A DNA stretch of 64,000 nucleotides from Candidatus Omnitrophota bacterium (GTDB lineage: Bacteria; Omnitrophota; Gorgyraeia; Gygaellales; Profunditerraquicolaceae), in the NCBI GenBank assembly GCA_018897555.1, contig JAHIKK010000112.1, forward strand, positions 12,275 to 76,274, written 5' to 3'. Under the pieces are notes generated by a model. The model had not been told where the DNA came from. It saw only the letters and a program-made list of their open reading frames with translations, and did not search any database. Positions within the stretch are counted from its first letter, which is position 1, and every line of letters starts with the position of its first letter. The translations under genes were made by a program, and so were the position numbers. Shown piece after piece: positions 1 through 8,873 of this stretch.

Positions 1-394
1 AATAAATTTAATAAAAATCCTGAGAATATCAGCATCAGAATTAGCTATTTCAATATGTTGATTTCCGACAATAGACGATTTATTCCCTTCTCCCGCGTAA
101 AGCATCAATCCGGCCACCCAAAGGTCTCTTAGGGAAAAAGGTATTATCTCTTCTCTACACACACGAAATAATTCATCCTGCCGAAGAGCAATATTGTTTA
201 AACGGGTCTTTCGGGCCTTCTCCCGGCCCATCAGACACTGATTATTAATATTAACCAATACTTCTTTAGGCAACACTATGTCTCTTACCCAATTACTTAC
301 AGAACCTTTAGATACATTCAATGAAACAGCAATCTGTTTCATTGAATGCCCCAACATTCGAAATTTCCTTGCCTTATCCTTTTCCGCTAATTTC
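1..394 (-). CDS. Partial ORF running off the window start: N-terminal helix-turn-helix protein with a LAGLIDADG-like motif (WVAGLMLYAGEGNK); possible homing-endonuclease-like protein
   Basis: Reverse-strand translation from GTG near 392: VKLAEKDKARKFRMLGHSMKQIAVSLNVSKGSVSNWVRDI... (HTH-like), then ...IPFSLRDLWVAGLMLYAGEGNKSSIVGNQHIEIANSDADILRIFIKFI, open to position 1. Not in the ORF track because it is truncated. Confidence 0.35.
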
Positions 395-443
395 ACAACA
401 TTAGTATATCAGAAATTTAGAGTGTGCGCAATAATAGAAAGGA

Positions 444-1019
444 TTAGGTTGCGGTTTTTTTAGCAAGCATATCGAATTCTACGTTTAATTTATCCGAGGG
501 ACCCTTAAAACTTAAAGTGGTATTCTTAAGAGTATGTGGAATGATATTAACACTGATAACACCGGCACGCTGGTTAGCTAAAGTTAAACTTACCCCATCC
601 AAAGAGATAGACCCTTTAGCAAGACAATACTTCATAAATAAAACTGGAATAGCCACGGCGAGTTCCAAATTTCCATTACGTAAAACTTTCCTGCGTATCA
701 GGCCCAGGCAATCAATATGGCCGGAAACAAAATGCCCGGAAATCCTGTCTCCTACCTTAAGGCTGCGCTCCAGATTAACCATCTGTCCAATTCTGAATAA
801 CCCCAGATTAGTATTTTTAAGCGTCTGCTGCATAACTTCAAAACTAAAATAAGCATCTCCGATGGCTACGGCCGTAAGACAGACGCCGTTTAAGGCAATG
901 CTATCTCCAATTTTAGTATCGATCAATGTCTGCTTAGCGCTAATCTCTAACCGGGTTATACCTGAGCGCTGCGTTATTTTTTTTACCTTACCTAACTCTT
1001 CCACAATTCCCGTAAACAT
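444..1019 (-). CDS. ribE: Riboflavin synthase (alpha subunit)
   Basis: MFTGIVEELGKV... N-terminus and lumazine-binding repeat typical of riboflavin synthase; sits in the rib operon. Confidence 0.85.
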   Translation of the reverse strand: MFTGIVEELGKVKKITQRSGITRLEISAKQTLIDTKIGDSIALNGVCLTAVAIGDAYFSFEVMQQTLKNTNLGLFRIGQMVNLERSLKVGDRISGHFVSGHIDCLGLIRRKVLRNGNLELAVAIPVLFMKYCLAKGSISLDGVSLTLANQRAGVISVNIIPHTLKNTTLSFKGPSDKLNVEFDMLAKKTAT

Positions 1020-2114
1020 CTACTTTACCCTCGCCTGGACCAACAGGTCTTCGCCAAAACGCCGGATCTTTAAATCCTGCAATTTAACCGCCTGATCTAC
1101 GCGCTTGACCCCGTTACCCATTACCGAGGAAACAGCGTCTTTACCTCCGATAATCTTGGGGCTGATAAAAAATAAAACTTTATCTACCAGCTTTTCGTCG
1201 AATAACGAACCGATAAGGGTCCCGCCGCCTTCCACAATAATATTGCTTATTTGTAATTGGGCCAACTTCTTTAAGGCATCACGTAAATTAATCTGGCCGG
1301 CTTTTTCCTTGACCTCAAGAATCCTGGCTTTGGCGGCCAACTTTTTGCGATTCTCCGTTTCCTGTCCGGGCCGGCTGGGTAAAGTAATAATAATCACCTG
1401 GCTATCTCCGGCAAAGATATTGGAATTTTCCGATATACTCAAATTACTATCAACAATGACCTTAATTAACTTTTTTTCAGAAAACCAGGCATTCAGGCTG
1501 GGATTATCACGTAACACGGTATTTACCCCCACCATAATCGCATCATAATCTTTACGTATTCTATGGGCAAAGGCCCGTGACTTATCCGAGGTAATCCACT
1601 TGGAATCACCGGTGCGGGTAGCAATCCGTCCATCCAGAGATTCAGCAACTTTTACCGTAATTAAAGGAATTCTGGTAGTGATATATTTAATAAAGCTTTC
1701 GTTAATTTCTTTTAATCGCTCTTCCAGAACCCCCACCTTGACTTTAATATTACCCTGCTTAAGCAACGTAACGCCTTTACCGTTATTTAAAGGATTAGGA
1801 TCAATCATCCCTACCACTACCTCTTTAATACCGCTTCCGATAATACGATTAATACAAGGTGGAGTGCGCCCCGTATGCGCGCAGGGCTCAAGCGTAACAT
1901 ACAAAGTTGCACCGGCGGCCTTTTTGCCCGCTGCATCCAAAGCAACAATCTCCGCATGCGCAAACCCGGCTTTAGCATGAAAACCGCGGCCGATAATTTT
2001 ACCCGCTTTTACCACTAATGCGCCCACTAAAGGGTTAGGAGAAGTTTTCCCTTTAGCCTTAAGCGCTAATTTTAAAGCCAACCCCATGTAATATTCATCA
2101 AGCGGTTTAATCAT
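1020..2114 (-). CDS. ribD: Bifunctional diaminohydroxyphosphoribosylaminopyrimidine deaminase / 5-amino-6-(5-phosphoribosylamino)uracil reductase
   Basis: Cytidine/dCMP deaminase zinc motif (HAEIVAL...PCAHTGRTPPC) followed by RibD C-terminal reductase domain. Confidence 0.9.
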   Translation of the reverse strand: MIKPLDEYYMGLALKLALKAKGKTSPNPLVGALVVKAGKIIGRGFHAKAGFAHAEIVALDAAGKKAAGATLYVTLEPCAHTGRTPPCINRIIGSGIKEVVVGMIDPNPLNNGKGVTLLKQGNIKVKVGVLEERLKEINESFIKYITTRIPLITVKVAESLDGRIATRTGDSKWITSDKSRAFAHRIRKDYDAIMVGVNTVLRDNPSLNAWFSEKKLIKVIVDSNLSISENSNIFAGDSQVIIITLPSRPGQETENRKKLAAKARILEVKEKAGQINLRDALKKLAQLQISNIIVEGGGTLIGSLFDEKLVDKVLFFISPKIIGGKDAVSSVMGNGVKRVDQAVKLQDLKIRRFGEDLLVQARVK

Positions 2115-2926
2115 TTTTTAGCGAGCCTTAGTTTTTCTACTAACTCCAGCGGTATTTTAATCATACCTAATTTTATCTGGGGTTTTACGCTGCCGTGAAA
2201 ATCCGTTCCTCCGGTAATCAAAAGATTAAGCTTTTTAGCTAAATCTAAATAGAAATTAACCATCGCTTGGGAATGCTCGGGATAATACACCTCTATCCCC
2301 TCTAACCCATAACCTGCGAATTCCGCGATCAATGCGTCATTATAGAGCATATACGGATGCGCTAAAACCGCTACACCGCCGGCAGCCTGAATTAATTTTA
2401 TTGCCTCCGGCACAGAAAGGCGAAACCCCAAAACATAGGCCGGAGATTTGTCCCCAATATACCTGCGAAACGCTTCCGCGGTAGAGCCGACTAAACCCTC
2501 TTTCACCAGGGCCCTGGCAATATGCATCCGGCCCACCGTGGCCTTCCCGGAAATACTAAAAACAGCCTCCGGGTTAAGCTTCACCCCTAATCCCTCTAAA
2601 TTCTCTACTATTTTATAAACCCGTTGAATACGGTTAAGTTGTACTAATTTTAATTTTTCAAGCAACTCTTGATTCCGATAATCCAGAAAATACCCAAGTA
2701 GATGTATCTCCTGATACTCGTGCTGAGCAGTTAATTCAATGCCCGGGATTATCTCTAAATCCGTACCTTCTGCTTCGGCTAATGCTTCAGTAAGCGCTTC
2801 TGTCGTATCATGATCAACGATCGCCAGCGCAGAGATCTTCCGGGCAACACCCTCTCTGACCAATTGCGCGGGTGTATATGTGCCGTCGCTGCAAGCGGTA
2901 TGCACATGCAAGTCAGCATATTTCAT
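2111..2926 (-). CDS. PHP-domain metal-dependent phosphoesterase
   Basis: N-terminal DLHVHTACSDG motif of the PHP (polymerase/histidinol phosphatase) family; embedded in the rib operon between nusB and ribD. Confidence 0.6.
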   Translation of the reverse strand: MKYADLHVHTACSDGTYTPAQLVREGVARKISALAIVDHDTTEALTEALAEAEGTDLEIIPGIELTAQHEYQEIHLLGYFLDYRNQELLEKLKLVQLNRIQRVYKIVENLEGLGVKLNPEAVFSISGKATVGRMHIARALVKEGLVGSTAEAFRRYIGDKSPAYVLGFRLSVPEAIKLIQAAGGVAVLAHPYMLYNDALIAEFAGYGLEGIEVYYPEHSQAMVNFYLDLAKKLNLLITGGTDFHGSVKPQIKLGMIKIPLELVEKLRLAKK

Positions 2927-3339
2927 TTTTCTTTCTCAATTTTTACCTGATCCAGTATGGCGTTAACAAACTTACCCGACTCCAGGCCGGAATATTTCTT
3001 GGCTAACTCCACTGCTTCATTAATCGCTACTTTAGGCGGAATATCCGCACGAAACAAAAGTTCAAAACAGCCCAAGCGCATGATATTACGGTCTACAAAG
3101 GCCATACGCTCAAGCTGCCAATTCGCGGCATATTTGCTGATTTTTTTATCAATCTCCTCCAGATGCTCAATCACGCCCCCCAACAGTTGGGCGGAGAAAT
3201 CTTTAAGTTCACCGGATAAATCTTGCCGATCGTTACTGGCGCAAAAATTTTCTAGAATTTCCTGCCAATCACCGTGGGTAATATCAACCTGATAGAGCAT
3301 TTGCAATACATATTCACGCGCCTTAGTCCGTTTTCTCAT
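2923..3339 (-). CDS. nusB: Transcription antitermination factor NusB
   Basis: 138 aa, NusB-like sequence (YQVDI..., ...LAKKYS); conserved ribH-nusB adjacency. Confidence 0.85.
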   Translation of the reverse strand: MRKRTKAREYVLQMLYQVDITHGDWQEILENFCASNDRQDLSGELKDFSAQLLGGVIEHLEEIDKKISKYAANWQLERMAFVDRNIMRLGCFELLFRADIPPKVAINEAVELAKKYSGLESGKFVNAILDQVKIEKEK

Positions 3340-3346
3340 GAGATTA

Positions 3347-3814
3347 TTATTTTAATTGTCCTGACAAATTAACCATCTCAATAGCCGAAAGAGCAGCATC
3401 TTTGCCTTTATTGCCATCCTTAGAACCTGCGCGTTCTACTGCCTGTTCAATACTGTCAGCAGTAATTACGCCAAAAATAACCGGCAGGCCGCTATCCAAA
3501 GAAACCTTTGCTACCCCCTTAGCTACTTCCGCAGCAATATAATCAAAATGCGGAGTTGCTCCCCGGATAATCGTACCTAAACAAATCAAGGCATCAACGG
3601 ATTTAGCTTTAGCCATTTTCTGGGCAACCAAAGGAATCTCAAATGCCCCGGGAACCCAAACCACGGTAATATCTTTATCTTCTGCGCCGTGCCTGACCAA
3701 AGTATCAATACAACCGCTTACCAGCTCCTTAGTCATAAAATCATTAAACCTGGAAGCCACCAGGCCAAAGGTCTGTCCTTTTGCTAACAGTTTACCTTCA
3801 ATTACTTTCACCAT
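3347..3814 (-). CDS. ribH: 6,7-dimethyl-8-ribityllumazine synthase
   Basis: [24 protein letters not shown]... lumazine synthase signature; start moved to the internal MVKV Met. Confidence 0.9.
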
Positions 3815-3873
3815 ATTTCCTCCTTGTTTACGAAACAACACCCGCGCAATTCCAATTAGCGCGGGGTGCCTGT

Positions 3874-5082
3874 TTAGAGATCCAGATGATGCCCTAGTTT
3901 CTCTTTTTTTGTTTTAAGGTATTTATAATTCTGAGCGTTAGGCTCAATCTCTAAGGGTACCCGCTGTGAAACTCCTAAGCCATAACCTTCCAGGCCGACA
4001 ATCTTGCGCGGATTATTCGTTAACAGCCTGATCTGCTTAATCCCTAAATCTACAAGAATCTGGGCGCCAATACCGTAATCGCGTAAATCCGCCTTATGCC
4101 CCAATGCTTCATTGGCCTCTACCGTATCCATTCCGTTATCCTGAAGGTTATACGCGCGCAGTTTCTCGACTAATCCGATGCCGCGGCCTTCTTGATGCAT
4201 ATAAAGGATCACGCCTTTTTTCTCCAGAGCAATCATCTGCATCGCCTTTTCTAATTGCCTTCCGCAGTCACAGCGCAATGAGCCAAAGACATCCCCGGTT
4301 AAACACTCTGAATGTACGCGGACCAATATTGATTCATCTAACCAGCTACCCATACACAAAGCAATGTGTGTCTGGCCATTGGTCTGATCGCGATAAACAA
4401 TTAACTTAAACTCACCAAATTTCGTGGGTAATTTGGTCTCTACAATTGCCTCCACCAGTTTCTCGCTCCTGCGGCGATATTCAATCAGGCTGGCAATCGT
4501 ACAAATCTTTAAAGTATGCTTCTTGGCAAACTCCCGAAGCTGCGGCAGGCGAGCCATAGTCCCGTCATCATTCATAATCTCGCAAATTACTCCGGCCGGA
4601 TAAAGCCCGGCCAGCCGCATTAAATCCAAGCTGGCTTCCGTATGCCCTGCCCTGACCAAGACTCCGCCGCGGCGCGAACGCAAAGGAAAAATGTGCCCGG
4701 GACGCACCAGGTCTTCCGGCTTGGTTTGCGCATTAATTAAAACTTCAATGGTTTTAGCCCGGTCGCCAGCAGAAATACCCGTACTCACCCCTAAAGCGGC
4801 ATCCACAGAAATCATCCAAGCGGTCTTAAAAGGATCCTCATTACCGGCTTGCAAAGTATTCTTAAGCATAGGATCAAGCTCCAATAAACGCAGCCGCTCC
4901 TCCTCCATGGGAACACAAATCAGTCCCCGCCCAAATTTAGCCATAAAATTAATGTCTGCGGATTTAACGCTGGAAGCGGCCATCACTAAATCCCCCTCGT
5001 TCTCCCGGTCTTCATCGTCAACGACAATGACCATTAATCCGGCTTTTAAATCTTCTAAAATTTCTGTGATGGAATTAAACAT
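3874..5082 (-). CDS. ribBA: Bifunctional 3,4-dihydroxy-2-butanone-4-phosphate synthase / GTP cyclohydrolase II
   Basis: [20 protein letters not shown] (DHBP synthase) plus C-terminal GTP cyclohydrolase II (HSECLTGD...CDCG). Start set at the MFNSITEIL Met, because the longer track ORF would run into the riboswitch terminator; RBS ggag lies upstream of it. Confidence 0.9.
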
Positions 5083-5089
5083 AAGTCTC

Positions 5090-5123
5090 CATAAAAAAAA
5101 TAAACCCGAAAACAATCTTCGGG
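5090..5123 (-). terminator. Rho-independent terminator/attenuator (FMN riboswitch expression platform)
   Basis: Minus-strand cccgaagattgttttcggg hairpin followed by tttatttttttt, directly upstream of the ribBA RBS. Confidence 0.8.
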
Positions 5124-5138
5124 CGTATTAATGTCAAT

Positions 5139-5272
5139 CTTTTCTCATCTGGACTTTCGCCGTAAAAAAAACGGCACCATCGGCCCTGGAATCTCACCAG
5201 ATCTGTCCGCCACAAAATCCATGGCTGACTCGCGGGCTAAACCGCCGGTAAGGAATTGCACCTTGCCCTAAA
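5139..5272 (-). promoter_or_regulatory. FMN riboswitch (RFN element) controlling the rib operon
   Basis: Minus-strand sequence GGGCAAGGTGCAATTCCTTACCGGCGGTTTAGCCCGCGAG ... GGTGAGATTCCAGGGCCGATGGTGCC ... GAAAGTCCAGATGAGAAAAG matches the conserved FMN aptamer core (GGGCAGGGTGAAATTCCCGACCGGCGGTA..AGCCCGCGAGC ... GGTGGATTCAG..GCCGACAGT.AAAGTCTGGATGGGAGAAG). Confidence 0.9.
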
Positions 5273-5342
5273 GATTAATTGTTATTATCTTAACAGAAAA
5301 ACGGGGCTTGTCAATACAATTAAAAACAACTATAATACATCT

Positions 5343-5813
5343 ATGCCCAATAAAATTCTAAAACAAATCCATAAAAAATTACTCCGCAAAGAAAAAACCG
5401 TTGCGGTTGCCGAATCCTGCAGCGGTGGGGAACTTTCCAGCCTCTTGACCAGTTTACCGGGATCTTCCGGTTATTTTCTTTTAGGCGTAGTTACTTATAG
5501 CAACAAATCTAAGGAAATGATCCTAAATATCCCGGCTAAAATAATTGCCAGATACGGCGCAGTTTCCCGCCAAGTGGCAATATTAATGGCCCGGAACATC
5601 CGTAAAAAAACACTTGCCGACTTTGGCCTGAGTATTACCGGAATTGCCGGCCCCACCGGAGCAACTACAACCAAACCCATCGGCATGGTATTTATAGCTT
5701 TAGCCAAAAAAAATAAAACCCTCTGCCGGTTATTTTTACTATCCGGAAAGAGGGAAGCTGTCCGTAAACAATCTGTTGGCGAAGCCCTGCGCTTATTATA
5801 CGCGCAGATATAA
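5343..5813 (+). CDS. CinA C-terminal domain protein (nicotinamide-nucleotide amidohydrolase PncC family)
   Basis: TVAVAESCSGGELSSLLTSLPGSS...ITGIAGPTG motifs of the CinA/PncC family; start trimmed to MPNKILK so it does not overlap the riboswitch. Confidence 0.7.
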   Translation: MPNKILKQIHKKLLRKEKTVAVAESCSGGELSSLLTSLPGSSGYFLLGVVTYSNKSKEMILNIPAKIIARYGAVSRQVAILMARNIRKKTLADFGLSITGIAGPTGATTTKPIGMVFIALAKKNKTLCRLFLLSGKREAVRKQSVGEALRLLYAQI

Positions 5814-6269
5814 CTTTAAAACCAGCAAAAGCACAATATTAGTATAAATACCGGCGATCAAGTCATCTCCCATTACCCCGATTGCGCCATGCCTATTCTG
5901 CAGCCTGGCTGCCGGATACGGCTTAAGTGTATCCAGAATACGAAAGATGAGAAAGGCCAGACAAATTATCTTAAAATCATTAGGCATAAAACTAAGCGCA
6001 ATGAGCATGCCTGCCACTTCATCAATTACAATACAGCCCGGATCTTTTTTATTTAACAATTTCTCCGTCCGGCCGCTAGTCACCAGGCCCAAGGCGATGA
6101 TACCGGCAATAAATAAAAAATAGGTTGCCCCGGGAGTGCCCTTAAGTAAATAATATACTCCTACTCCGGCGATACTGCCGAAAGTTCCGGGGACAAGGGG
6201 TAAATAACCGATAAAAAAAACAGTGCTAGAAGCTTTAACTAAAAAATCCCCCGCTCTTTCAAATTTCAT
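5796..6269 (-). CDS. pgpA: Phosphatidylglycerophosphatase A
   Basis: PLVPGTFGSIAGVGVYYLL and membrane profile typical of PgpA. Confidence 0.75.
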   Translation of the reverse strand: MKFERAGDFLVKASSTVFFIGYLPLVPGTFGSIAGVGVYYLLKGTPGATYFLFIAGIIALGLVTSGRTEKLLNKKDPGCIVIDEVAGMLIALSFMPNDFKIICLAFLIFRILDTLKPYPAARLQNRHGAIGVMGDDLIAGIYTNIVLLLVLKLYLRV

Positions 6270-6853
6270 AGGCGGGTAATTATTTTACGGTTGCTCCAAA
6301 GATAGGATAACCCGGAATAAAGAGTTAACCCTACGGTCACCAGCATCAGGAAAAATATTCCCTGGCGGAAGACCTTTTCCCAGGCAGGATTCCAATTATA
6401 ATATTTAAGCATAATTTCTTTAAACACAATAGAACATAAAATAACAAGAATAACTAACATCTGTAAAAATGTCTTGTGTTTACCAGCGCGCGCAGCAGAT
6501 AATACTTTACCTTTATTCAAAGCAAATAGGCGTAAAGAAGTAATTAATATTTCTCTAGAGACGATAATTATAAACATCCAAGCATCAATTAACTGCAATT
6601 GCACGAATGCCGTAAAAGCCGCCAGTACCAGAATTTTATCTGCGATAGGATCCATCAATCTACCAAAATCGGTAACCATGTTATCTCTTTTGGCTATAAA
6701 ACCATCAAGAAAATCAGAAACGGCAGCAAAAATAAATATAATAAGCGCTATTAGTTTTATCCACCAAATTTTATCGAGTCCTGGAAGAAAAAGAAAAGCA
6801 AAGACAAAAGCAAGAATGATTCGAAACATGGTTATTTTATTAGCAAGATTCAT
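6266..6853 (-). CDS. pgsA: CDP-diacylglycerol--glycerol-3-phosphate 3-phosphatidyltransferase
   Basis: NKITMFRI N-terminus and the D-G-x2-A-R (DFLDGFIAKR) CDP-alcohol phosphatidyltransferase motif. Confidence 0.8.
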   Translation of the reverse strand: MNLANKITMFRIILAFVFAFLFLPGLDKIWWIKLIALIIFIFAAVSDFLDGFIAKRDNMVTDFGRLMDPIADKILVLAAFTAFVQLQLIDAWMFIIIVSREILITSLRLFALNKGKVLSAARAGKHKTFLQMLVILVILCSIVFKEIMLKYYNWNPAWEKVFRQGIFFLMLVTVGLTLYSGLSYLWSNRKIITRL

Positions 6854-8094
6854 ATTTTTTCCCCCACTAAGTCATATTCTAAAGTATCTGTAATTTTTAC
6901 TTGGATAAATTTACCTATTTCCAGCGGCCCAGTTGTATTTATATACACCACTCCGTCTACCTCCGGGGCATCACCCTGACTGCGCCCGATATATGCACCA
7001 TCCTGCTTTTCCTCAACCAGCACAGTAATATTCTTTCCCAGGAATTTCGCATTTATACCGGCGGCTATCTCCCGCTGCGCGGACATAATTTTATCAAATC
7101 TTTCCTGTTTTAGCTGTAGAGAGATTTGCCCCTTAAAATTATAGGCAGGCGTGCCTTCTTCCCGGGAATAAATAAAAGCTCCCAGCCTGTCGAATTTGGC
7201 CTCTTTAACAAATTCCAGCAACTCACTAAATTCTTTTTCCGTCTCTGAGGGAAAACCTACGATTAAGGAGGTACGTAAATAAACCCCGGGAATAGTTTTC
7301 CTGATTTTTTTGATTAAAGCCATAATCTCTTCCTTAGCCATCGGCCGATGCATAGCTTTTAGAATACGGTTATTAATATGCTGAATCGGCAAGTCAATAT
7401 ATTTACATATCCGCTCTGAAGAAGCAATCAGCTTCAGCAGCTGGCTGGTAATCCGTTCCGGATGCAAATATAAAAGACGGATCCATCCGATATCCGGCGC
7501 ATTACTAATTATTTTCTGTAAAAGCCCGGTTAGCTGGCTTTTACCGGTAGTATCCATACCAAAACCGGTAATATCCTGGCCGATAATATTTAACTCTGAA
7601 ATCTTCTGGCGATTAAAACGCTCTACATTTCGGATTATGGCGGGCTCATCCAGGCTCTCCAGGCTGCCTTTAATCTTAGGGATTACGCAGTAACTACACT
7701 GGTTTACACAGCCTTCGCATATTTTCAGGTAAGCGTAATGTTTAGGGGTTAAAGCAAACCTTTTTGATTCGTGGTTTAATCCCAGTGTCCCCACGAAAGC
7801 ATCTACTTCCGGTAAATCCTTGGCTAAATTTTTATAACGCTGCGCCAGGCAGCCGTAAACAATTATTTTTTTAAGTTTCCCCTGTTTCTTTAGCTGGACT
7901 AAATCCAAAATTACATCGATGGATTCACGCTTTGCCTCTTGGATAAAAGCACAGGTATTCACTAAAACTACTTCTGCCTGAGTAATGTCATCAACAATAG
8001 AATAATCTTTAAACTTAAGCCGCCCGGCAAGAGCTTCGGCATCCACCAGGTTTCGGGGACACCCTAAGGTGATTATCCCTATTTTTTCTTTCAT
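6850..8094 (-). CDS. rimO: Ribosomal protein S12 methylthiotransferase (radical SAM MTTase, RimO-like)
   Basis: KIGIITLGCPRNLVDAE N-terminal MTTase domain, radical-SAM CEGCVNQCSYC motif, C-terminal TRAM domain; ~414 aa like RimO. Confidence 0.7.
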   Translation of the reverse strand: MKEKIGIITLGCPRNLVDAEALAGRLKFKDYSIVDDITQAEVVLVNTCAFIQEAKRESIDVILDLVQLKKQGKLKKIIVYGCLAQRYKNLAKDLPEVDAFVGTLGLNHESKRFALTPKHYAYLKICEGCVNQCSYCVIPKIKGSLESLDEPAIIRNVERFNRQKISELNIIGQDITGFGMDTTGKSQLTGLLQKIISNAPDIGWIRLLYLHPERITSQLLKLIASSERICKYIDLPIQHINNRILKAMHRPMAKEEIMALIKKIRKTIPGVYLRTSLIVGFPSETEKEFSELLEFVKEAKFDRLGAFIYSREEGTPAYNFKGQISLQLKQERFDKIMSAQREIAAGINAKFLGKNITVLVEEKQDGAYIGRSQGDAPEVDGVVYINTTGPLEIGKFIQVKITDTLEYDLVGEKI

Positions 8095-8873
8095 CTGGAG
8101 ATTTTTAAACCTTCTTTATTAATAACGATATTCTTTAAAGACTGTCCGTGCCGTCCAAGATTAGCAAAACGCTGGTCATTAACCTGCAGTTCTACTGCTC
8201 CGGCATCCCCCAGAGACAATTCCACTTTTTCGCGAGCCTTCCAGGTTTCAGACCGGCCGCGGCCAAGCACGCCATGAAAAACAACCTTCCCGTCAACTTT
8301 AACTGAAATCCAAGATTTACCACGCGCAAATATACCCAAAGCAAACTCCGGAGTCAGCTCTTTATTAACTTTAGTTGACGTAACCACAGCTTTAGGCACA
8401 GAAACAGGCATGGAAATTTTAGTCTTTTCTAACCGGCTCTTTGGCCGGGAAAAAACAAACTTAATTAAATTAACCCCTAAAAATATAAAAATTATCGCGA
8501 TAACCGCGAATATAATTATTTTCTTTAAGTTATCCGAGGGCTTGATCGCGCTCAGCTTGGCAGTAGCATCTTTAATAAAAGAAAATTTATTTTCAACCCG
8601 CGTTCCTATGGGCTTACCCACGATGGCATTTAAAGCCGGTTTCTGTGGCTGCGCGCTAGGGCCGATAAAATTTTTAGCATCCAGGCCCAGATAACCGCAA
8701 TAAATCTTAATAAAACCTTTAAGATAAATTGGGCTTAAATTCGAAATACTATCACCTTCAATTGCCCGCAAGACGTTAGGGTGAATTTTGGTCTTTTTAT
8801 GGATATCCTCTAAACTTAACCCCTTCTCCTGGCGAATCTTTTTTAGCCGGGGACCGGCTGTTTCAATATTCAC
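8091..8873 (-). CDS. rodZ: RodZ-like cytoskeleton protein (XRE-type HTH + TM + C-terminal DUF4115-like domain)
   Basis: LKKIRQEKGLSLEDIHKKTKIHPNVLRAIE HTH, central TM segment, C-terminal beta-rich domain. Confidence 0.5.
   Translation of the reverse strand: MNIETAGPRLKKIRQEKGLSLEDIHKKTKIHPNVLRAIEGDSISNLSPIYLKGFIKIYCGYLGLDAKNFIGPSAQPQKPALNAIVGKPIGTRVENKFSFIKDATAKLSAIKPSDNLKKIIIFAVIAIIFIFLGVNLIKFVFSRPKSRLEKTKISMPVSVPKAVVTSTKVNKELTPEFALGIFARGKSWISVKVDGKVVFHGVLGRGRSETWKAREKVELSLGDAGAVELQVNDQRFANLGRHGQSLKNIVINKEGLKISR

Follow-up and report, generated by a model that had tools for sequence, protein, structure and literature searches.

A predicted FMN-controlled riboflavin operon of Candidatus Omnitrophota with nusB and a PHP phosphoesterase of the RNase AM/pAp phosphatase type

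The riboflavin operon and its leader

The window, which is the whole 64-kb stretch of DNA analysed here, contains on the minus strand six genes in the order ribBA-ribH-nusB-PHP-ribD-ribE. They encode the DHBP synthase / GTP cyclohydrolase II (ribBA, 3874..5082; NF006803, 603.9 bits, cut-off 569), lumazine synthase (ribH, 3347..3814; TIGR00114, 178 bits, cut-off 84.6), the transcription antitermination factor NusB (2923..3339; TIGR01951, 152 bits, equivalog cut-off 88.35; Pfam PF01029, E = 3.6e-41), a PHP phosphoesterase of the TrpH/YciV (RNase AM / pAp phosphatase) type (2111..2926), the deaminase/reductase RibD (1020..2114; TIGR00326, 367.7 bits, cut-off 156) and riboflavin synthase (ribE, 444..1019; NF006767, 213.9 bits, cut-off 155). 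For every rib gene, and for nusB, at least one NCBIfam model gives a score higher than its curated cut-off. The spacers are 59 nt between ribBA and ribH, 7 nt between ribH and nusB and 0 nt between ribD and ribE, and the nusB/PHP and PHP/ribD junctions are 4-nt ATGA overlaps. The profile scores and coordinates agree with the gene order and the tight spacing reported in an earlier note on this DNA. No second copy of nusB or PHP was found within the window. The pgpA gene also lies near the operon; a terminator-like site (5408..5396, minus strand) was considered as its terminator and was rejected, because it falls within the plus-strand cinA gene.

The operon is preceded, on the same strand, by a sigma-70-like promoter (5314..5287) consisting of TTGACA (5314..5309), a 16-nt spacer and a TG-extended TAAGAT that ends at 5287; in the promoter scan it matched the consensus at 10 of 12 positions, with the TG present. 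About 8 nt 3' of this promoter begins a full-length FMN riboswitch aptamer (5133..5279), which matched the covariance model RF00050 over model positions 1-138 of 138 with 98.1 bits (gathering score, 66.2; E = 1.7e-21) and was the sole Rfam match at the gathering score within the window. The aptamer is followed by an intrinsic terminator (5124..5091), namely the 9-bp hairpin GCCCGAAGA-UUG-UUUUCGGGU (5124..5104) and a U-tract (5103..~5091), just 5' of the ribBA Shine-Dalgarno sequence GGAG (5090..5087) and the ATG at 5082. Both the riboswitch and the hairpin with its U-tract before ribBA had been recognised earlier, at 5090-5272 with the aptamer at 5139-5272; these coordinates left the aptamer slightly short at both ends and were otherwise right.

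The 5' strand of P1 together with J1/2 (UAAUCUUUAGGGCA, 5264..5277) can base-pair with the terminator 5' arm. In RNA folding, this antiterminator duplex has -14.8 kcal/mol, versus -7.1 for P1, and it is the minimum free energy pairing once the transcript ends short of the terminator 3' arm. Among the 15 relatives tested, all have a terminator 3' of the aptamer and 14 repeat the geometry of the antiterminator. Homologous FMN aptamers head 18 of 21 related operons, and RF00050 found none in some Omnitrophota operons (L075 and L102). The cluster of L075 and L098, in which PHP is linked to nusB in the absence of the riboswitch, was considered as a third phylum; this was rejected, since the cluster is another Omnitrophota lineage.

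On the basis of these pairings, the leader is read as a standard FMN riboswitch of the transcriptional OFF type, and taken alone it is ordinary. Without FMN, the 5' strand of the aptamer (the P1 5' arm and J1/2) would pair with the terminator 5' arm, and RNA polymerase would proceed into ribBA-ribH-nusB-PHP-ribD-ribE. When FMN is bound, P1 and J1/2 would be held in the aptamer, so that the hairpin and U-tract could form and transcription would end before ribBA. The arrangement resembles the rib leader of Bacillus subtilis (RFN element, RF00050), which also has a full aptamer above the gathering score, an intrinsic terminator with a mutually exclusive antiterminator, and a multigene riboflavin operon behind it. 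Unlike in B. subtilis, the operon in the window also has nusB and the PHP gene, and the antiterminator is formed by the extreme 5' strand of the aptamer and J1/2, which reach across the whole aptamer to the terminator 5' arm.

A GC-rich hairpin (3839..3868, minus strand; -22.2 kcal/mol, z = -2.75), followed by UUGUUUCG, lies in the ribBA-ribH spacer. It is common to the window and its closest relative (L001) only; elsewhere among the relatives, this position has either no palindrome or an unrelated one. It was thus rejected as a conserved attenuator; it is a lineage-specific element, possibly a partial terminator or a stabiliser.

Fold, residues and family of the PHP protein

In a phmmer search of PDB sequences, the PHP protein matched RNase AM (7ug9; E = 3e-32, residues 4-255) and Cv1693 of Chromobacterium violaceum (2yb1; E = 8.5e-30), a 3',5'-nucleotide bisphosphate phosphatase, with about 30-33% identity to RNase AM and Cv1693 across the full length. 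The AF2 model (pLDDT 95.9, pTM 0.92) is a distorted (beta/alpha)7 PHP barrel with a helical insertion domain. Foldseek gave TM scores of 0.89 to RNase AM (9etk; rmsd 2.0 A), 0.89 to 3e0f and 0.84 to Cv1693, and just 0.34 to histidinol-phosphate phosphatase.

The trinuclear metal site has nine ligands, H7, H9, D14, H39, E64, H75, H190, D242 and H244, which were matched to H13, H15, D20, H45, E72, H83, H198, D255 and H257 of the Escherichia coli enzyme and are invariant in 36 of 36 aligned sequences. Equally invariant (36/36) are R99, R102 and R133 of the 5'-phosphate pocket and the stacking F153, corresponding to E. coli R107, R110, R141 and F161; the specificity residues were defined from the RNase AM structure paper. 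Thus, in fold, insertion domain, metal ligands and pocket, the protein is like E. coli RNase AM (YciV/TrpH; 7ug9, 9etk) and Cv1693. It also differs from them. In E. coli, the loop residue R201 makes a salt bridge with the scissile phosphate; the aligned residue here is M193, in a shorter loop, and this position is hydrophobic throughout the clade. The protein does not reach the equivalog cut-off of either NCBIfam model, pAp phosphatase (NF041577, 187.4 versus 400) or RNase RNM (NF047791, 166.6 versus 375), and its activity is a predicted one. Judged by these scores, it is a homolog of pAp phosphatase and RNase RNM but an equivalog of neither, and belongs to a distinct subfamily.

RNase AM acts on rRNA, maturing 16S, 23S and 5S at their 5' ends, and also hydrolyses pAp and short oligonucleotides. 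In the PHP protein, the buried pocket of three arginines would hold the 5'-phosphate of a nucleotide while the metal site cleaves the 3' phosphoester. Because the pocket grips the 5'-phosphate and the metals cut at the 3' side, the likely substrates are pAp, very short 5'-phosphorylated RNAs and the 5' extensions of rRNA precursors.

Association of the PHP gene with nusB

Across Candidatus Omnitrophota, the riboswitch and the order of the genes are retained, down to a PHP identity of about 41%. Among complete operons, 42 had the PHP gene together with the rib genes, and many partial ones had it as well, with PHP identities from 98 to 41%; the linkage of PHP to rib genes, which the earlier note had named for checking, was borne out in related genomes. 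The PHP>ribD junction (median -4 nt, 10 nt or less in 85% of junctions) is equally tight as the nusB>PHP junction. In all of the 70 linked loci, nusB is immediately upstream of PHP, and PHP stays with nusB where ribD and ribE are relocated or absent. One operon (L023) is rearranged to FMN-ribD-ribE-ribBA-ribH-nusB-PHP, in which PHP remains behind nusB and not ribD, and bin17 (L038/L022) has FMN-ribBA-ribH-nusB-PHP followed by hisG. A 45-aa PHP fragment after nusB in L038 was considered as a pseudogene remnant, since L022 has an intact copy; it was rejected as a scaffolding artefact, as shown by identical 136-nt contig ends beside N-runs in CP070780.1. Among the linked and unlinked loci examined, PHP never adjoins rib genes without nusB between them. 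The unlinked homologs were never seen with rib-gene neighbours; one of them adjoins RNase III (L100, 14 nt upstream of rnc) and another an APS kinase gene (L080). The two genes nusB and PHP form a conserved module inside the operon.

Furthermore, NusB and PHP are fused in single open reading frames in four of the loci (L052, L056, L057 and L061) and across the anammox Planctomycetota of the class Brocadiia (Brocadia, Jettenia, Kuenenia and Scalindua). Among the matches listed, both PF01029 and PF02811 were present in all of at least 120 fusion clusters. The fusion gene lies between ribH and ftsY, with ribH as the sole rib neighbour and ribBA, ribD and ribE elsewhere, and a scan of three metagenome fusion loci (L061, L052 and L057) with RF00050 gave no match. 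The ribH gene is always adjacent to nusB-PHP, the Brocadiia included. The AF2 model of the Brocadia fusion has a pTM of 0.65 and a disordered linker, so that no defined interface between NusB and PHP is predicted. A fusion of overlapping neighbours can come from the loss of one stop codon and does not necessarily prove a joint function.

The metal ligands, R99, R102, R133 and F153 are at least 95% conserved in nusB-linked and unlinked homologs alike, and no columns with a functional shift were found between 68 linked and 32 unlinked proteins; the differences are conservative (A4, I157/L, V263/L, T66/S, and M/L versus P at position 134).

The grouping of nusB with rib genes has precedents in Proteobacteria, where it is co-transcribed with them. 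As in the window, nusB is directly 3' of the lumazine synthase gene in E. coli (ribE(H)-nusB-thiL-pgpA), and it is grouped with rib genes in the nrdR-ribD-ribE-ribA-ribH-nusB operon of Vibrio cholerae. However, the proteobacterial ribH-nusB operons have neither an FMN riboswitch nor a PHP gene after nusB, whereas in the window the nusB-PHP module and then ribD-ribE all stand behind the riboswitch. The gene for E. coli RNase AM has trpLED/yciO as its genomic partner, in contrast to the adjacent or fused nusB described here. RNase AM paralogs also exist as fusions with RNase III. These fusions, which occur in some delta-proteobacteria (Jain 2020), are similar in that a TrpH-type PHP protein is physically coupled to a participant in the synthesis or processing of rRNA, but the partner in our case is no nuclease; it is the BoxA-binding antitermination factor NusB, fused in Brocadiia and encoded by an overlapping gene in Omnitrophota.

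Possible functions of the PHP protein and FMN control of nusB-PHP

The earlier note proposed the PHP enzyme as a candidate for a dedicated phosphatase of riboflavin biosynthesis, which would remove the phosphate from 5-amino-6-ribitylamino-uracil 5'-phosphate (ARPP/ARAPDP) and so supply RibH with its substrate. Such a role would account for the embedding and translational coupling of the gene in an FMN-regulated rib operon: the riboswitch heads most of the operons, a 4-nt overlap joins PHP to ribD in the majority of loci, and ribH, whose product uses the product of the phosphatase, is adjacent in the loci with a NusB-PHP fusion too. The PHP superfamily does contain phosphomonoesterases, and histidinol-phosphate phosphatase is a distant fold match. 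Like the known ARPP phosphatases, the enzyme would be a phosphohydrolase acting between RibD and RibH. These vary among organisms, and since none of them is universal or dedicated, a lineage-specific solution is conceivable. The premise of the note that this step has long been missing is partly out of date, however: HAD enzymes (YigB and YbjI in E. coli, YcsE, YwtE and YitU in B. subtilis and PyrP2 in Arabidopsis) and, in Aquifex aeolicus, a histidine-family phosphatase and an IMPase are now known, and the B. subtilis ARAPDP phosphatase is encoded outside the rib operon (2026 review). None of these has the PHP fold, and their mechanism differs. Moreover, the association of PHP with rib genes was never independent of nusB, whether in rearranged operons, shortened operons or the Brocadiia fusions, which are remote from ribBA, ribD and ribE and, in the three scanned loci, lack the riboswitch. 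The presence of nusB itself shows that a rib operon can stably harbour genes outside riboflavin synthesis. The arginine triad and stacking phenylalanine of RNase AM and Cv1693 are retained, with the same specificity residues as in the unlinked homologs, and so the protein shows no shift away from nucleotide 3'-phosphoester substrates. As the pocket would hold the 5'-phosphate away from the metals, a 5'-phosphomonoester such as ARPP would be mispositioned for hydrolysis. We found no paper that ties a PHP protein to this step, nor any earlier link between the FMN riboswitch, PHP and nusB. The PHP protein is probably not the ARPP phosphatase, and we regard that role as improbable; this tempting candidate can thus drop in priority before assays are invested in it. 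More improbable still is a flavin-linked role, either in deFADding, where the enzyme would strip RNA of its FAD caps, or in the hydrolysis of another flavin nucleotide, with FMN control coupling this activity to flavin status. RNase AM does take intact FAD off FAD-capped RNA in vitro, FAD-cap levels are altered in delta-rnm E. coli, and the gene appears to be FMN-regulated here, given the riboswitch and its alternative pairing. However, deFADding could not be told apart from the ordinary exonuclease activity on 5'-phosphorylated ends and seems general to 5'-3' exonucleases, FAD-capped RNA is very scarce, the riboswitch is missing from the scanned Brocadiia loci and from some Omnitrophota operons, and the riboswitch-linked homologs have no residue signature of their own.

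The proposed FMN control of nusB is physiologically odd, as NusB is a general factor, and statistically rare: one survey covered 651 FMN-riboswitch units and had nusB in just 5 of them, and nusB and FMN elements have been argued to be mutually exclusive. The apparent control of nusB-PHP(-ribD-ribE) could therefore be an illusion of annotation, owing to an internal promoter that escapes detection or to leaky termination, which may occur in this operon. Among the relatives, no junction in the operon is as loose as ribH>nusB, where the spacer has a median of 30 nt and reaches 670 nt. In L005, a promoter-like TTGCAA-16-TATGAT lies 26 nt 5' of nusB, and the hairpin 3' of ribBA in the window points in the same direction. 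On the other hand, an internal promoter separating nusB-PHP from the rib genes, which the earlier note had named as counter-evidence, was found neither in the 7-nt ribH-nusB spacer of the window nor as a conserved element among the relatives, and only weak 9/12 promoter-like matches, at about the chance rate, were found inside ribH. A conserved promoter in the longer spacers was rejected, because these are non-homologous palindromic insertions and the L005 match stands alone among the relatives. In addition, ribD and ribE, which are 3' of nusB-PHP, need riboflavin-responsive expression. Hence an escape of nusB-PHP from the riboswitch seems unlikely to us, although less so than either flavin-related function of the enzyme, and the six genes are presumably co-transcribed. 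Such an escape would in any case be compatible with the function that we prefer for the PHP protein. If nusB lies behind the FMN riboswitch throughout Omnitrophota, this is an exception to the mutual exclusion reported for rib operons, and poses the problem of how repression by a metabolite is tolerated for a general transcription factor.

We consider it rather probable that the locus combines an FMN OFF switch with a nusB-PHP module whose PHP protein is of the RNase AM/pAp phosphatase type and tied to NusB, not to the ARPP step. The synteny, the fusions and the conserved residues and fold suggest that the protein is most likely a NusB-partnered enzyme of this type, which would share the process of NusB, namely transcription and maturation of rRNA. 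The PHP gene is probably found in the riboflavin operon because nusB was anciently linked to ribH.

A further reading, put forward tentatively and with somewhat less than even confidence, is that NusB and a TrpH-type 5'-3' exonuclease/phosphoesterase form an undescribed functional module in the PVC group, as overlapping genes across Omnitrophota and as one polypeptide with a flexible linker across the anammox Brocadiia. NusB bound to BoxA, on the antitermination complex at the rRNA leader, would tether the nuclease near the 5' ends of nascent pre-rRNA, which could then be trimmed or cleared co-transcriptionally. In Omnitrophota, the FMN riboswitch over the module would link flavin status to the supply of NusB and the nuclease. 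The NusB-PHP fusion is a more interesting lead than the ARPP phosphatase, and together with the pairing in Omnitrophota it provides a testable hypothesis, that RNase AM-type enzymes have been recruited to rRNA transcription complexes. In addition, the finding of NusB-PHP puts right how hundreds of proteins from metagenome-assembled genomes are annotated; the Brocadiia fusions are at present annotated merely as 'NusB'.

Riboswitch, leader and gene arrangement of the rib operon

The earlier note had placed an FMN aptamer in the minus-strand leader of the rib genes. A scan with RF00050 located it there at 5279..5133 (minus strand; 98.1 bits, threshold 66.2, E = 1.7e-21, full model), with real ends lying a few bases beyond those noted on both sides. 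This aptamer is the sole Rfam match at gathering score in the 64-kb window, and as a riboswitch of its family it is ordinary. It is preceded by a sigma-70-like promoter (TTGACA-16-TG-TAAGAT; 5314..5287, minus strand) and followed, as had been described, by a terminator right before ribBA: a 9-bp hairpin (5124..5104, minus strand) and a U-tract that stop just short of the Shine-Dalgarno sequence GGAG (5090..5087), ahead of the ribBA ATG at 5082. The terminator 5' arm (GCCCGAAGAUUG) has its best partner in the 5' end of the aptamer (5277..5264), which comprises the 5' strand of P1 and the conserved AGGGC of J1/2. This antiterminator duplex has an energy of -14.8 kcal/mol versus -7.1 for P1 alone, and it is the minimum-energy structure when the transcript is folded up to before the terminator 3' arm. 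All of the 15 divergent relatives examined have a hairpin and U-tract after the aptamer, and in 14 of them the terminator 5' arm pairs best with the extreme 5' end of the aptamer. Since the arm pairs with the P1 5' strand and J1/2, binding of FMN should free it: without FMN, the antiterminator would form, and with FMN bound, P1 and J1/2 would be fixed, the terminator arm released, and transcription stopped. The rib leader is a conventional transcriptional OFF switch, whose ligand response we infer from these pairings.

All genes listed in the earlier note were matched exactly on the minus strand in the order ribBA (5082..3874), ribH (3814..3347), nusB (3339..2923), the PHP-family phosphoesterase gene (PHP, 2926..2111), ribD (2114..1020) and ribE (1019..444); for nusB and every rib gene, one or more NCBIfam models matched above their curated cut-off. 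The spacing from ribH onward is very tight, as claimed (7, -4, -4 and 0 nt). The ribBA-ribH spacer contains a GC-rich hairpin (3839..3868, minus strand; -22 kcal/mol, z = -2.75) followed by UUGUUUCG; it is common only to the window and a 98%-identical relative, and could be a partial terminator or an mRNA stabiliser. At the 3' side of ribE, where most relatives have a tRNA gene, the window has instead a partial open reading frame (1..396, minus strand) that runs past its edge, matches an HTH weakly at the N-terminus and has a motif of the form ...LWVAGLMLYAGEGNK...; no tRNA match was found in the whole 64-kb window.

A CinA/PncC-like gene (5343..5813, plus strand; PF02464, E = 3.9e-53) diverges from the rib operon. 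It has a strong promoter-like site (TTGTCA-17-TATAAT, 11/12; 5308..5336, plus strand), whose -35 hexamer overlaps that of the rib promoter on the opposite strand. Its 3' end overlaps convergently with that of pgpA, which belongs to rimO-pgsA-pgpA (5796..8094, minus strand), located just upstream of the rib operon and syntenic in close relatives. The presence of pgpA near ribH-nusB recalls the ribH-nusB-thiL-pgpA cluster of E. coli and Vibrio.

Conservation of the operon and probable FMN control of nusB-PHP

The nearest PHP homologs (97-71% identity) all come from Candidatus Omnitrophota MAGs, and genome contig JAUYBI010000075.1 is 98% identical. The six operon proteins were mapped on 38 genome and 80 metagenome loci. 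These include 42 complete and many partial operons with the order ribBA-ribH-nusB-PHP-ribD-ribE, among which PHP identity goes down to about 41%; the linkage of PHP to rib genes thus holds in related genomes. The cluster of loci L075 and L098 was rejected as a separate group, being another Omnitrophota lineage. Among the 21 operons with upstream sequence at hand, 18 have the FMN aptamer at their head (fifteen above the gathering score and three at 54-64 bits), and L075 and L102 are without it. The ribD match is limited to the deaminase domain (~140 aa) in several of the divergent Omnitrophota operons (L021 8921..9337, L023 4656..5075, L027 8565..8966, L030 8830..9261), where the reductase domain may have diverged, or be separate or missing.

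In the window, the 7 nt between ribH and nusB leave no room for a promoter, and promoter-like matches are just weak ones (9/12) inside coding sequence, at about the rate in shuffled sequence. With the RF00050 match, the linkage in relatives and no internal promoter splitting nusB-PHP from the rib genes in the window or conserved in relatives, the earlier finding stands. Co-transcription from the riboswitch promoter, which we infer, is the simplest reading, although physiologically surprising. Expression of nusB-PHP by an internal promoter or leaky termination is rather unlikely on these grounds, although one survey found nusB in just 5 of 651 FMN-riboswitch transcription units and argued for mutual exclusion (PMC5312566), and ribH-nusB is the loosest junction of the operon in relatives (median 30 nt, up to 670 nt). 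A promoter-like match occurs in this spacer of L005 only; the relatives' ribH-nusB spacers share no conserved promoter and consist of non-homologous, palindrome-rich insertions. The FMN-controlled rib operon with a nusB-PHP module, conserved phylum-wide, is a new variant, in contrast to the FMN units surveyed, where nusB is reported to be rare.

The insertions in the relatives' intra-operon spacers are strongly palindromic and REP- or MITE-like in look, both between ribH and nusB (L002, L005, L007, L008, L012, L015, L044, L045) and between ribBA and ribH (L004, L014, L020, L046, L049, L059). L028, L032 and L034 have non-coding gaps of ~600-670 nt (for example, L032 6915..7584) with no credible open reading frame and no Rfam match at gathering score.

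Association of PHP with NusB

In all of the 70 riboflavin-linked loci (L022 counted together with L038), nusB is immediately upstream of PHP. Three kinds of natural rearrangement were used to tell a partner of nusB from a riboflavin enzyme. In L023, the order is FMN-ribD-ribE-ribBA-ribH-nusB-PHP followed by tRNAs, so that PHP is kept beside nusB and not ribD. The true order in the chromosome of bin17, an Omnitrophota MAG (CP070780.1), is FMN-ribBA-ribH-nusB-PHP followed by hisG, with ribD and ribE absent. In L052, L056, L057 and L061, nusB and PHP form one uninterrupted open reading frame of ~427 aa, in which a linker of ~25 residues joins the NusB domain to the PHP domain (L061 5530..6813; L052 and L057 5527..6813; L056 3820..5190; also L120-L123 7001..~8300). 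A PHP fragment in bin17 was rejected as a real remnant, being a scaffold-join artefact: identical 136-nt sequences (8001..8136 of both L038 and L022) lie beside N-runs ~170 kb apart. The joins have duplicated contig ends, and therefore the segment order of this 'complete' MAG is unreliable here.

A database search found the fusion (422-475 aa) in Brocadia, Jettenia, Kuenenia, Scalindua, Hypogeohydataceae and other anammox Planctomycetota; both PF01029 and PF02811 were present in 120 of 120 clusters among the matches listed, with identity down to 51%. In an exhaustive search, the full-length fusions fell into about seven clusters at 50% identity, some just 35-45% identical; of the six looked up, one is labelled Candidatus Brocadiia and four have no taxon label. 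Their annotation reads just 'transcription antitermination factor NusB'. The fusion gene stands between ribH and ftsY in Brocadia, Kuenenia and Scalindua, with tatC on the opposite strand before ribH and no other rib gene nearby. A scan of three metagenome loci with the fusion (L061, L052, L057) gave no RF00050 match. The AF2 model of the Brocadia fusion has well-folded domains (pLDDT 88.8; pTM 0.65), a disordered linker and no positive evidence of a NusB-PHP interface; it points to flexible tethering and not to a rigid complex.

Our literature searches returned no account of NusB associated with, or fused to, a PHP protein or RNase AM. RNase AM trims the 5' ends of 16S, 23S and 5S rRNA, and RNase III-fused paralogs have been noted (PMC7261194); it also hydrolyses pAp and very short 5'-phosphorylated oligonucleotides (PMC11528712). 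NusB binds BoxA in the rRNA leader within the antitermination complex (PMC10250234). That nusB and PHP are adjacent, overlap or are fused is therefore in keeping with a joint part in the synthesis and maturation of rRNA. The module probably lies among riboflavin genes because of the ancient ribH-nusB linkage, which is also present in E. coli and Vibrio.

Predicted activity of the PHP protein

For almost all of its length, PHP is similar in sequence to E. coli RNase AM (7ug9, E = 3e-32), to 9etk and 3e0f, and to the pAp phosphatase Cv1693 (2yb1, E = 8.5e-30). Its AlphaFold model (pLDDT 95.9, pTM 0.92) superposes on RNase AM 9etk with TM 0.89 (2.0 A), on 3e0f with 0.89 and on Cv1693 with 0.84, but on histidinol-phosphate phosphatase with only 0.34. 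RNase AM has nine metal ligands, a buried 5'-phosphate pocket (R107/R110/R141) and a stacking F161 (PMC9410882). The window PHP has the metal ligands H7, H9, D14, H39, E64, H75, H190, D242 and H244, the pocket R99, R102 and R133, and the stacking F153, all invariant in 36 of 36 aligned sequences; R201 is the sole RNase AM residue of those compared that is not kept. Between 68 nusB-linked and 32 unlinked PHPs, no functional-shift column was found, all differences being conservative. In NCBIfam, PHP stays under the equivalog cut-offs of both named activities (RNase AM-type and pAp phosphatase), and it is therefore predicted to be a distinct subfamily working like RNase AM/Cv1693, equivalog of neither.

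The proposal that PHP is the ARPP phosphatase of the riboflavin pathway is weakened by these results, and we consider it improbable. PHP follows nusB in L023, bin17 and the fusions, and the embedded nusB itself shows that a gene of a rib operon need not act in the pathway, although PHP overlaps ribD as tightly as nusB overlaps PHP, and ribH, which would use the product of this dephosphorylation, is adjacent throughout. The unchanged pocket keeps the 5'-phosphate away from the catalytic metals. The phosphatase of this step varies between organisms; however, no PHP enzyme is among those characterised, which are HAD enzymes and, in Aquifex, a histidine-family phosphatase and an IMPase (PMC12051542, PMC13151069). 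A role in removal of flavin caps (deFADding), an activity of RNase AM in vitro, appears more improbable still. The testable lead in place of the ARPP phosphatase is a nuclease tethered to NusB.

Unlinked PHP homologs have mixed neighbours, never including rib genes: L100 (6001..7564) has RNase III 14 nt downstream, L080 (5114..6825) has APS kinase upstream, and L104 (3376..5524) adjoins a PIN-PhoH protein. The first two echo activities known from the family, and all three would suit roles of its wider membership in RNA processing and PAPS/pAp turnover.
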